Below are positions 1,456 to 3,906 of a stretch of 64,000 nt of DNA, in pieces. The position numbers and the translations under genes are program-made. Below the pieces are notes generated by a model that saw nothing but the letters and a program-made list of their open reading frames with translations, did not search any database and was not told where the DNA came from. Source of the DNA: a phage. The first letter of the stretch is position 1. The number at the start of each line of letters is the position of its first letter. Location: the sequence record PZ809289.1. One strand, written 5' to 3'.

Positions 1456-1863
1456 ATGACTCGTATCAACCTTACCTTAGTATCTGAATTGGCTGACCAA
1501 CACTTAATGGCTGAATATCGTGAATTACCACGTGTTTTCGGTGCAGTTCGTGAACGTATTGCCAAAGGGCAAGGCTTCTCTGATATCCCTAAAGACTTCC
1601 GCCTTGGTTCAGGGCACGTCAAGTTCTTTTATGACAAAATTGGTTTTTTGTTCTTGCGACAAAATGCAATAATTGAGGAACTTCTGAAGCGTGGTTACCA
1701 GATTCAAAATACCCATGTAGACGTAGCGGATATTCCATTACGGCTTATGAACGATTTCACTCCAACCGAAGCTGATATAGCTTTAAGCCAAGCTCGTCTG
1801 GATGAAAAAATTGCACAGCGTCCTACCTGGTACAAACATTATGGCAAGGCTATTTACGCTTAA
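1456..1863 (+). CDS. denV: Endonuclease V, pyrimidine-dimer DNA glycosylase
   Basis: [31 protein letters not shown]...[15 protein letters not shown] is near-identical in ends and length to T4 DenV. Confidence 0.95.
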
Positions 1864-1906
1864 TTAAATCCGTGATAGAATACTTCTATCAACTTAAGGA
1901 ATAACA

Positions 1907-2206
1907 ATGAAAACTTATCAAGAATTTATCACAGAAGCCAAAGCTCCTAAAGCATTTCAAATTGGAGTTCAAGGCAATTTAGACCAAGAATATGTTGATG
2001 CTATTGTAGCAAGCCTCGGTAAACAGGGCGTACAAGTCGATTTTGTTGATTTTACCAAAGGTAATACTTTTAATATTGTTACATCTAAAGGTTCTTTAGC
2101 TAAAGTTAAAAAGGCCTTTGGCGTAGCACAAGCATATGAAATCGACCACTCCGAATTAGAAAATAAAGGTCGCCAGAACACAATTAGAGGTTCTGGTTCT
2201 TTCTAA
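1907..2206 (+). CDS. Internal head protein-like (99 aa) with capsid-targeting sequence
   Basis: N-terminus MKTYQEFITEAK; RBS AAGGAA. Confidence 0.8.
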   Translation: MKTYQEFITEAKAPKAFQIGVQGNLDQEYVDAIVASLGKQGVQVDFVDFTKGNTFNIVTSKGSLAKVKKAFGVAQAYEIDHSELENKGRQNTIRGSGSF

Positions 2207-2310
2207 TAAAGGCAAGCCGGCCCTCTCCTCATGAACGTCTAGTCCTCTGGGTGATGAACCCAAGGATGAATTATGTGCCAAGGATTAGTCCATAACTTAA
2301 AGAGTCAAAA

Positions 2311-2670
2311 ATGAAAACATATCAGCAATTTATTACTGAATCTACCCAACGTATTAACGAAGCTATGTCGCCTGAACAGTTGGCTAAAGCTAAAGAAGGC
2401 CTGAACCCATCTGAAGTTTTTAAAGTTACAGGTAAAGACTTTGCTTCTATGGCCACTAACCAAAGCCTGGCTAAAGAACTTAAATCTAAATCTAACTTCA
2501 TTCATGCTACATGGAATGGTGATTCTCTTACTTCAATAAGTGTGTACAATAAAAAAGGTCTCCTTAAGAGTTCTTATGGCGCGGATGCCATCCGTGTTTC
2601 TAAATCAGATTGGCATAAAAACACTACTAAAGCAGAAAAACCTCATAACCCGGCACTAGACCATCTTTAA
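2311..2670 (+). CDS. Internal head protein-like (119 aa) with capsid-targeting sequence
   Basis: N-terminus MKTYQQFITEST; preceded by 13-codon uORF. Confidence 0.8.
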   Translation: MKTYQQFITESTQRINEAMSPEQLAKAKEGLNPSEVFKVTGKDFASMATNQSLAKELKSKSNFIHATWNGDSLTSISVYNKKGLLKSSYGADAIRVSKSDWHKNTTKAEKPHNPALDHL

Positions 2671-2678
2671 GGCTTAAT

Positions 2679-2936
2679 ATGAAAACTTACCAAGAATTTA
2701 TTACAGAATCCACTTTAGTTTCTAAACGTTGGAATATGATTGTAAACGTTAAACCTTCCGGCACTGAAGTTTCTATGGCCGACCCTAATGATGACGAACT
2801 TGAGCACGCTTTTAGCTCTAAAGAAACTGACGAGAAAGTGGTTAAGCAACTGGTTGCTGATGCAGATCAACTTCGTAAAGTAGCAGATGTTGTTAAGCTG
2901 TTTACTAAGAAAGGTTTTAAACACGAAGAACGTTAA
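2679..2936 (+). CDS. Internal head protein-like (85 aa) with capsid-targeting sequence
   Basis: N-terminus MKTYQEFITEST. Confidence 0.8.
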   Translation: MKTYQEFITESTLVSKRWNMIVNVKPSGTEVSMADPNDDELEHAFSSKETDEKVVKQLVADADQLRKVADVVKLFTKKGFKHEER

Positions 2937-3052
2937 TTAGCATTTTAAATGGGAGCAACCTGGACCTCACAATTCTGTGAGGGACTCCCGCCAACCTGTA
3001 ATAAGGTCGAGCCCAAGTGCGGTAATGGGTAAATGCAGAAAGGGACGAATTA

Positions 3053-3613
3053 ATGTGCCAAGGAACGGCCCTCAAAGGAAATACTATGAAATTTTTAACC
3101 CCTATTTATCTAACCTTAATGCACGCCTTCGCTGAACGCGCCATTGAACGTTTAGACTCAGACCAATATACCTGGTATGAACCTACTTCACGAATGCAAG
3201 AGTTTGGTACTCTTCGTCTTGATGGCGGTCGACAAACGGGTAAAACAAGTGCCATTGCGCAGTTTGCTGCGGATTGGGTTTCCAAAGGTAATGATGTGAT
3301 TGTTATGTCGAGTTCTTCGCATCGCTCGCGAGAAATTTGTAATATAATAAAACAGGTTTCTAAGGCACACCCACATCTCCAAGTCGAAGGTCCCGGTTTT
3401 GTTGTCTATGATACCGTGCGCAGTTTCCTTGATGAAGACAATTTCCATAAGTATCGTGGACTATCTGTTACTCGATTATTGATTATTATCGAAGAGCCAA
3501 TGCGCCTTCCAACGATGGATAAGTTCTATGAAGCTTACCAGGTAATGATTAATAAATTTATGTGCCAAGGCGACAAGCCTTTGCCTCTGTTCTTTGTGAT
3601 AGGAATGCAATGA
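3053..3613 (+). CDS. Hypothetical protein with P-loop-like GRQTGKTS motif (186 aa; alternative start 3086)
   Basis: ORF with RBS AAGGGA before ATG 3053; second RBS AAGGAA before ATG 3086; Walker-A-like DGGRQTGKTS. Confidence 0.55.
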   Translation: MCQGTALKGNTMKFLTPIYLTLMHAFAERAIERLDSDQYTWYEPTSRMQEFGTLRLDGGRQTGKTSAIAQFAADWVSKGNDVIVMSSSSHRSREICNIIKQVSKAHPHLQVEGPGFVVYDTVRSFLDEDNFHKYRGLSVTRLLIIIEEPMRLPTMDKFYEAYQVMINKFMCQGDKPLPLFFVIGMQ

Positions 3614-3906
3614 TGACCGATGAAGAACTTTTTGAGTTCTGTTATTTCTCACGTAAGGTCCGAAGAGAGGACCTTACTGCAAATTTCGAATATGCTTATT
3701 TCTACCCACTAGAATACGTGTTCATGACAGGGCCCTTTAAGGGCTCTCGTTTTAGATGTCATGCTCCTAGTATCCGATTAATGAAACAGGTTCCTTACTT
3801 CACTCTCGAGTTCATCTCAGGGCCTTGTAAGGGTATTATTACTCGTAGTCTCTTGACTTATGACCAAGAGATTCATATGATTTCTGACTGGAAAAAATAT
3901 GTCTAA
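3610..3906 (+). CDS. Hypothetical protein (98 aa)
   Basis: ATG overlapping upstream stop (ATGA coupling); track ORF begins at upstream GTG 3562. Confidence 0.5.
   Translation: MMTDEELFEFCYFSRKVRREDLTANFEYAYFYPLEYVFMTGPFKGSRFRCHAPSIRLMKQVPYFTLEFISGPCKGIITRSLLTYDQEIHMISDWKKYV

Follow-up and report, generated by a model that had tools for sequence, protein, structure and literature searches.

The question raised by this locus is what two GC-rich intergenic spacers, at positions 2207-2310 (island 1) and 2937-3052 (island 2), are doing among the internal-protein (ip) genes of a phage. They lie in a 64,000-nucleotide (nt) stretch of sequence record PZ809289.1, here called the window, which comes from a T4-type phage of the Dhakavirus group; all window features described below are on its + strand. 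A sequence-only reading had taken the spacers for recombination scars or leader-peptide elements, or possibly a small structured RNA. We find that both spacers are copies of a phage-specific, pseudoknotted structured RNA of ~120-150 nt encoded on the + strand, the one in island 2 intact and the one in island 1 decayed; we consider this identity and structure very probable. The small-RNA suggestion holds for island 2, where the case is stronger than had been proposed, the element being widely conserved and covarying. The scar suggestion holds for island 1, which has suffered an internal deletion and is fused to the next ip gene.

Structure and distribution of the element

The intact copy in island 2 spans positions 2951-3072. 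Its core, with the motif ACCUGUAAnAAGGUCnAGC..GCGGUAA, forms a three-way junction at 2986-3037, which is the sole match in the window to covariance model R1 (65.6 bits, E = 4.5e-20). The core consists of the closing stem P1 (CCA 2991-2993 paired with TGG 3026-3028), the hairpin P2 (ACCT 2994-2997 and AGGT 3004-3007 around the loop GTAATA), the hairpin P3 (GC 3011-3012 and GC 3019-3020 around CCAAGT) and the junction strand GGTAA (3021-3025). Model R1 was built from 41 sequences. At other loci it gave 83 matches, 59 of them distinct, with E values from 1e-22 to 6e-4. The aligned copies share a near-invariant ACCUGUAAnAAGGUC-nA-GC(3-6 nt)GC-GGUAA, held within a stem of changing sequence. The closing pair of P1 forms in 57 of the 59 distinct sequences, as AU (28), UA (12), CG (8), UG (7) or GC (2), and all measures lie above those of shuffled controls. 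P2 (ACCU[GUAAnA]AGGU) and P3 (GC..GC) are invariant across copies. U-G pairs are frequent; read from the opposite strand they would become C-A, which agrees with the + strand, the one that carries the flanking genes and tRNAs. An additional pairing suggested by the phage X20 copy, between column N of UC-N-AGC and the C of GUGC-GG, was rejected on account of one-sided changes at three loci (L035, L049 and L055).

The 5' hairpin P0 (2951-2989) is the nested hairpin that had been noted from the sequence. It is indeed present, with outer pairs GGGAG (2951-2955) and CTCCC (2985-2989), an internal loop CAACCTGGAC and an inner stem CTCACA-ATTC-TGTGAG. Covariance searching in related phages had been proposed as a check on the conservation of this hairpin; P0 stays paired in other groups, and several stems of the element covary. 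The outer and inner stems change in sequence from group to group: GGGAA/UUCCC in T4, GGGG/CCCC in the Vequintavirus naswa, GCGC/GCGC at locus L062 and GGAAC/GUUCC in the Vequintavirinae-like metagenomic contig L066. We distinguish two 5' subtypes: type A comprises the JS10, RB69, KP15-like and CC31-like copies, and type B those of T4, T2, WG01 and island 2. P0 covaries in type A and in the copies from N4-like phages, where a long outer helix with compensatory changes closes the domain.

RNAalifold, run on the 24 distinct type A sequences, recovered a long-range helix, PL, in which 3 nt from the internal loop of P0 pair with the 3 nt that come after the conserved single-stranded linker GUUUACAUA. 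These triplets are CCG/CGG, CAC/GUG, CGC/GCG or CCA/UGG and are paired in all 24 sequences; CC31-type copies have CUG/CAG at these positions. In island 2, PL would by homology pair CTG (2960-2962) with CAG (3036-3038), and across phage families we assign it tentatively. When the complete pseudoknotted structure (P0a, PL, P0b, P1-P3 and P5) is placed on the type A alignment, 98.8% of the cells are paired, compared with 26-44% in slid controls. Six pairs, including pairs in PL and in the outer stem of P0, show two-sided changes, and none does so in any slid control.

The element ends in a 3' hairpin, P5 (GCCAAGGAACGGC, 3057-3069). Its sequence GCCAnGGAAnGGC is conserved in 24/24 type A sequences; in island 2 there is an A-C mismatch at the fourth pair. 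At locus L039 a compensatory change (GGCAU/AUGCC) is accompanied by a frame-shifting indel, and the hairpin is kept. P5 is absent outside T4-like phages. Compensatory changes thus back the closing stem, the 5' hairpin and PL, and P5 more weakly. In Vequintavirinae the element is part of a ~200-nt conserved region. A motif CCC(U/A)UAGAGGGCUUGA(U/A)AGUGC flanks the core on one or both sides there (L005, 2440-2470; L066, 52-90 and 180-215), a hint that the RNA extends to ~200 nt there or that a second conserved module exists.

Island 2 is 100% identical to the corresponding spacer of phage WG01 and ~90% identical, over 83% of its length, to sequences of T2, T4 and RB-type phages. When island 2 was used as query in a sensitive search, 1067 phage records matched, 554 of them with a coverage of at least 80%; the phages include T2, T4, RB69, CC31, PEi20 and X20. 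In T2 and T4 the sequence occupies the same place as in the window. The T4 element (NC_000866, ~64,817-64,939, minus strand) begins directly after the denV stop codon and is ~6 kb from the T4 tRNA cluster. The core (~45 nt) is also found upstream of a tRNA array in naswa, after the endolysin gene of the 45-kb coliphage Ivi, and inside a 1-kb non-coding stretch following the tRNA cluster of the Klebsiella phage KpCHEMY26, a member of the Schitoviridae (N4-like). Pattern scans of IMG/VR and metagenomes revealed the core in many further unrelated contigs. The element spans at least three unrelated phage families (T4-like, rV5-like and N4-like), and its distribution is horizontal. It has no match in 5,426 complete Escherichia coli genomes, and among 185,579 species genomes there are two matches, both in metagenome-assembled genomes. 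The element is not host-derived and is essentially absent from bacteria.

Nothing in Rfam 15 overlaps the element at the gathering threshold, or at E values up to 10 on the islands, and ten loci from other phage groups gave no match at E values up to 0.5. A tRNA or tRNA remnant was rejected as an explanation: ARAGORN called no tRNA in the whole window and no tRNA-clan model matched the islands at E values up to 10. We found the element described neither in Rfam nor in a limited search of the literature by sequence, gene names and topic. One paper on RegB and S1 that mentions denV is about the Shine-Dalgarno (SD) sequence of denV, not about the element.

A few copies deserve separate mention. 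The Edwardsiella phage PEi20 (L031) has tandem cores at 1193-1244 (62 bits) and 1306-1355 (40.6 bits), the second diverged (CCUGUAAUAAGGCCAGUCCGCGACGGUAA), and the window is thus not the only case of a duplicated element. In the 288-kb Klebsiella phage vB_Kpn_AM_K4 (L033, 1500-1625), a KP15-type copy ends inside P5 and is followed by unrelated sequence; this junction is near the end of the record, where few genes are annotated, and looks like an assembly chimera. The 1-kb stretch of KpCHEMY26 (L113, ~2368-3372) has no annotated gene. It holds the element together with repeated units beginning GUGCnnUUnnCGUUGUG and sub-threshold matches to transfer-messenger RNA (2999-3134; 33.7 bits, compared with a gathering score of 47), and may encode several structured RNAs. 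Contig L066 contains a group I intron (RF00028, 81 bits, E = 3e-19) at 3115-3418, a few kb from the element.

The decayed copy and the internal-protein locus

Island 1 (2204-2310) is a type A copy that has kept its 5' domain and 3' tail and lost its core. It aligns with the JS98 and JS10 elements with ~90% identity on each side of a 57-nt gap, which takes out the whole three-way junction, the linker GUUUACAUA and the 3' strand of PL; accordingly, model R1 finds no core in island 1. The deletion junction is at 2260/2261, between ..GATGAACC and CAAGGATGAATT.., and does not occur in any phage record or IMG/VR contig. Upstream of it, the retained P0 domain (2208-2260) is homologous to type A columns 15-67 and includes the 5' strand of PL (CCG, 2217-2219), whose partner is deleted. 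Two more substitutions in this domain are at pairs conserved in the type A set, in which P0a, P0b and PL are supported. Downstream of the junction, the 3' tail (2261-2318) consists of a degenerate P5 (GCCAAGGATTAGTCC, 2277-2291; GCCAAGGAUUAGUCC) and a JS98-type vs.8 leader, joined to the gene ip119 at ATGAAAAC. The tail is 80% identical to the vs.8 leader and start codon region of JS98, and ATGAAAAC is common to the JS98-type vs.8 start (MKT..) and the starts of the ip genes (MKTY..). We consider it very probable that island 1 is a recombination scar.

Both spacers belong to the ip cassette region between denV and vs.8. The gene order in the window is e (66-311), two ip-like genes (298-696 and 779-1375), denV (1456-1863), ip99 (1907-2206), island 1, ip119 (2311-2670), ip85 (2679-2936), island 2 and vs.8 (3086-3613). 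The 99-residue ip99 product has a capsid-targeting N-terminus (MKTYQEFI..) and matches the internal head protein family phrog_2667 (E = 7e-43). The first gene of the inserted cassette, ip119, encodes an ip-like protein of 119 residues (phrog_3966); the second, ip85, encodes an ip-like protein of 85 residues, assigned from the open reading frame (ORF) list and from relatives. The vs.8 homologue, assigned from relatives' annotation and phrog_1488, has 175 residues, begins with MKFL and contains a Walker-A-like GGRQTGKT. It has no relative in Pfam, PADLOC or the PDB, and shows no more than a weak similarity to the ATPase region of terminases. Genes of the MKTY(Q/K/N)EFI type between e/denV and vs.8 place the locus among the T4-type ip cassettes, which is a statement about the context and not about the element. 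Capsid-targeting starts of the form MKTY(N/K/Q)(E/Q)FI are found in five ORFs of the window (at 298, 779, 1907, 2311 and 2679), and no compared relative has as many ip-type genes. The repeated ip 5' sequence, ATGAAAAC(T/A)TA(T/C)CA.., is itself a likely recombination anchor. T4 has a tRNA cluster downstream of e/nudE, and no tRNA gene was detected in the window.

The unusual GC content of the two spacers, the feature that had first set them apart, is borne out: 45.2% in 2207-2310 and 47.4% in 2937-3052, compared with a window mean of 39.1% and 28-33% in neighbouring intergenic spacers. They are GC-rich for spacers yet not extreme, because among all segments of equal size they rank merely in the top 12% and top 4%, respectively.

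The history of the locus can be read from its relatives. Region 1800-3700 is 91-97% identical to WG01, KIT01, LQ5, JS10 and others, and the highest coverage by any one record is 83%. In JS10 the order is denV-ip99-spacer-vs.8; thus, the same gene precedes the element there as precedes island 1. The order in WG01 is denV-ip119-ip85-spacer-vs.8, with the same ip119/ip85 pair as in the window, and that in KIT01 is denV-ip119-ip99-spacer-vs.8. In the simplest history suggested by these arrangements, a JS10/JS98-like locus (ip99, type A element, vs.8) would have acquired a WG01-like cassette of ip119, ip85 and type B element. The cassette would have entered at the ATGAAAAC common to the vs.8 and ip starts, and the redundant upstream type A copy would then have lost its core by the 57-nt deletion.

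The sequence-only reading had also drawn attention to an initiation region shared by the two spacers. The shared segments are present (AAGGATGAATTATGTGCCAAGGA, 2262-2284; AAAGGGACGAATTAATGTGCCAAGGA, 3039-3064), and the repeated ATGTGCCAAGGA, or 'MCQG initiation region', is P5 with its flanks. Three exact copies of ATGTGCCAAGG are found in the window, at 2273, 3053 and 3560. With up to one mismatch there are five matches, compared with 0.67 expected, and 0/100 shuffled sequences reach five. In island 1 the repeat opens the predicted 13-codon ORF MCQGLVHNLKSQK (2273-2314), with its first ATG at 2273 rather than 2274; the TGA stop (2312-2314) overlaps the ip119 ATG at 2311, giving the ATGA that had been noted. 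The ORF and this overlap are by-products of the fusion of island 1 to ip119. The in-frame recurrence that had been placed at 3561 exists at 3560-3570 (context ..NKFMCQGDKPLPLFF..) and is ordinary vs.8 coding sequence (KFMCQG), unrelated to the element. Relatives have synonymous variants of it and T4-type vs.8 lacks it. This third copy is probably a coincidence. It shares a 13-mer, TTATGTGCCAAGG, with island 1; an exact third copy is improbable by chance, and we have no positive explanation for it.

The copy at 3053 does open the 186-residue ORF that had been described, but the gene begins at 3086. WG01, KIT01 and JS10 annotate vs.8 from the MKFL start, which is at 3086 in the window, and in the 186-residue ORF the match to the phrog_1488 profile begins at residue 12. 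In the T4 reference (L028, NC_000866.4), vs.8 is annotated as a protein of 219 residues starting inside the element (MRDSRQPVIRSSPSAV...), which thereby becomes its first 44 codons (L028 3280-3413, equivalent to T4 ~64,780-64,912, minus strand). Other T4-like genomes and the PHROG profile place the start at an MRTF/MKFL methionine ~44 codons downstream of that in T4. The N-terminal extension of T4 vs.8 is probably an annotation artefact.

Possible functions of the element

We favour the reading that the element is a discrete folded phage RNA with a conserved partner. To our explanation as a whole, which takes in the identity of the two islands, their history and this mechanism, we give a probability of roughly 60%. 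The element would act as a folded RNA domain, not as DNA or as a peptide. In T4-like phages it would be transcribed inside an early polycistronic message; in other phages the transcript would come from a promoter of its own or as part of a tRNA operon. Most likely it would remain as a separate, stable RNA and bind a conserved macromolecule of enterobacteria through its invariant loops; this trans-acting binding mechanism we put forward only tentatively. Wide spread among phages, near-absence from bacteria and covariation together point to a functional RNA that targets a conserved enterobacterial component, and the near-invariance of the loops across families with otherwise unrelated genes likewise suggests recognition of a conserved host component.

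The surroundings of the element in other phages are consistent with an independent RNA. Two strong sigma-70-like promoters flank it in L066, with 11/12 and 10/12 matches and an extended -10 in both. A tRNA-Ser gene precedes it by 37 nt at L062, where a hairpin and U-run come next after the element; these we read by eye as a putative intrinsic terminator. Twelve of the 18 loci outside the T4-like phages have a tRNA gene within 600 nt on the same strand, and at L110 the element is between tRNA genes and a sub-threshold tRNA-like match. The loop of P2, C-U-G-U-A-A(-A), is identical to positions 32-37(38) of the anticodon loop of tRNA-Tyr, including the tRNA-Tyr encoded by naswa itself. The linkage to tRNA genes and this loop identity suggest tRNA-directed machinery as the target. 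Degradation of tRNA-Tyr by a retron effector is known to be countered by tRNA-Tyr of phage origin (PMC11555353). One could speculate that the element represents a new class of trans-acting RNA that passes horizontally between unrelated virulent phages of enterobacteria and serves as a decoy for, or an inhibitor of, a host activity directed at tRNA. Its targets would be an anticodon nuclease or a retron/PtuAB-type effector acting on tRNA-Tyr, or the queuine-inserting enzyme Tgt, recognised through the invariant P2 loop held by a pseudoknotted scaffold. We regard this specific proposal as improbable.

Several observations weigh against a discrete RNA with a conserved partner. Transcription, processing and stability of the RNA are what we infer from the sequence. 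The resemblance of P2 to tRNA-Tyr extends over merely 6-7 nt. A role in cis would also agree with the position of the element in T4-like phages, where a start codon always follows closely. Because type A copies carry a weak early-promoter-like TTTACA-16-AATTAT, some of the conservation at the 3' end could reflect a function of the DNA. The structural evidence is uneven as well. P2 and P3 never vary, so covariation neither backs nor contradicts them; type B shows no variation at PL, and covariation of this helix is confined to type A. A test for unanchored complementarity between the 5' and 3' parts of 41 family representatives gave a Fisher p value of 0.91, the helices being too short for such detection. 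Finally, the single-sequence folding energy of island 2, calculated with pseudoknots ignored, is no better than that of shuffled sequences (z = -0.39; naswa, -1.9).

Of the other explanations, the one that survives best, although we consider it unlikely, is a cis-acting leader (a riboswitch-like, stability or translation element) that controls the next gene, vs.8 or ip, with P5 and its AUG as the expression platform. All T4-like phages examined have a start codon 15-45 nt beyond the end of the element. Its invariant junctions, covarying stems and pseudoknot resemble those of aptamers, and the loop of P5 shows GGA or AGGAA beside a conserved AUG. However, what follows the element is vs.8 in some phages and an ip gene, a gene for a small basic protein (Vequintavirinae), tRNA genes or a putative terminator (L062) in others. 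In a KP15-like phage the order is element-ip-vs.8, not ip-element-vs.8; the element can therefore not be a leader specific to vs.8. The Vequintavirinae have a promoter between the element and the gene that follows it, P5 is missing outside the T4-like phages, and we found no alternative terminator or anti-SD pairing.

Less likely still is that the spacers are DNA-level module boundaries resembling the promoter-early stem-loop cassettes (PeSLs) of T4-type phages, each of which is a simple terminator-like stem-loop combined with a sigma-70-type early promoter (PMC4122927). The copies would then be recombination anchors, and possibly promoters, through which ip cassettes are shuffled, and the RNA fold would be secondary. 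The two copies do flank exactly the ip119-ip85 cassette of WG01, the order of element and ip genes is permuted between phage groups, and PeSLs have been reported to mediate cassette swaps. The type A sequence TTTACA-16-AATTAT is also close to the T4/PST PeSL promoter consensus TTTACW-N17-TAYWAT (PMC4122927). Yet neither island of the window has a promoter-like or terminator-like site. Selection has acted on the structure of the RNA, to judge from its compensatory changes, its G-U pairs and the pseudoknot, and the core is conserved in unrelated families to which T4-type cassette exchange cannot apply.

A translated MCQG upstream ORF coupled to the next gene, the leader peptide of the sequence-only reading, we consider very unlikely. 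Of 44 variants, 41 retain the ATG, preceded by GGA at a distance of 6-8 nt, and ATGA stop/start overlaps occur in island 1 and KIT01. The three remaining variants have ACG, though, and the ORF is 6, 8, 12-18 or 28 codons long or fused in frame to the next gene, relative to which its frame is not conserved. All differences within it are non-synonymous (C/R, Q/H, M/T) and occur at unpaired or wobble positions of the hairpin, and at L039 the frame has shifted while the hairpin is kept. The MCQG reading frame is probably incidental.

That the element is protein-coding, either as an N-terminal extension of vs.8 or as a separate micro-protein (..QPVIRSSPSAVMG..), has a negligible chance of being right: the T4 annotation from an ATG inside P0 does run in frame through the element, with a same-frame ORF in JS10 and one N4-like contig, but T2 has a TAG before vs.8, 1-nt indels in the P3 loop (RB69, L039, L058 and L062) lead to a stop at GGTAA, naswa and Ivi have an in-frame TGA just upstream and no start codon, and the vs.8 family profile begins at MKFL.

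A discrete folded RNA thus remains our preferred reading, and the element merits attention on several grounds. T4, one of the best-studied genomes, holds this ~130-nt element hidden under a probable misannotation of the vs.8 N-terminus. More than 1000 phage genomes carry it with near-invariant loops, and many of these phages are candidates for phage therapy. If its partner were found, the element would be an RNA player in host takeover or counter-defence and would provide a function for a locus among known anti-defence genes; if the decoy proposal were true, it would be an RNA-based anti-defence or host-takeover factor. Our results also correct the starts of vs.8 genes and show the insertion of an ip cassette and the decay of redundant copies of the element.

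Comparison with known systems

The islands most resemble PeSL cassettes in being short conserved intergenic modules with stem-loops in the hyperplastic regions of T4-type phages (Arbiol et al. 2010; Comeau et al. 2014, PMC4122927). PeSLs border swapped gene cassettes, and the two copies in the window likewise bracket the inserted ip cassette. The location agrees too: the islands are at borders of genes that differ between relatives (JS10, WG01, KIT01 and a KP15-like phage). In other respects the element differs from a PeSL. There is no promoter-like site in 2207-2310 or 2937-3085, the TTTACA-16-AATTAT stretch of JS10 being deleted from island 1 and absent in type B. No terminator-like site is found in the islands and no T-run follows P0. 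The element is three to four times longer than a PeSL, is pseudoknotted, covaries at the RNA level and also occurs in non-T4 families.

With upstream ORFs and leader peptides the islands have in common a short ORF that is preceded by an SD-like GGA and that, in some genomes, overlaps the next gene at an ATGA. The start is mostly kept, but length, frame and peptide vary, and conservation follows the hairpin. With riboswitches the element shares a conserved aptamer-like fold with covarying stems. It lacks a consistent 5' untranslated position before related genes, its downstream neighbours being different, and an expression platform.

Among phage RNAs, the stable RNAs species 1 and 2 of T4 (rnaC and rnaD) are linked to tRNA genes, and outside the T4-like phages our element is likewise adjacent to tRNA genes on the same strand. 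Identity with rnaC or rnaD was rejected: there is no similarity in sequence or motif, and the rnaC/rnaD region is without the core. HDV-like theta ribozymes are small pseudoknotted RNAs adjoining phage tRNA genes. The hepatitis delta virus (HDV) topology is a nested double pseudoknot in which the 3' strand of P1, 6-7 nt long, runs between P3 and P4, and in which J4/2 holds a catalytic C. Inspection of our alignments rejected this topology, as merely C-N-A is found between the corresponding helices and the junction is GGUAA. In addition, the pseudoknot of the element crosses a different helix and the HDV-type models of Rfam do not match. A hammerhead topology was also rejected by inspection. 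ROOL and GOLLD are large RNAs associated with phages and tRNAs; our element is much smaller than either and matches no Rfam family. With the orphan motifs and aptamer-like folds of Rfam it shares invariant junction and loop sequences, covarying stems, a pseudoknot and a phage/tRNA context. We rate the element as a new family among the conserved structured RNAs of phages, and its duplication and scar in the window as ordinary cassette evolution.

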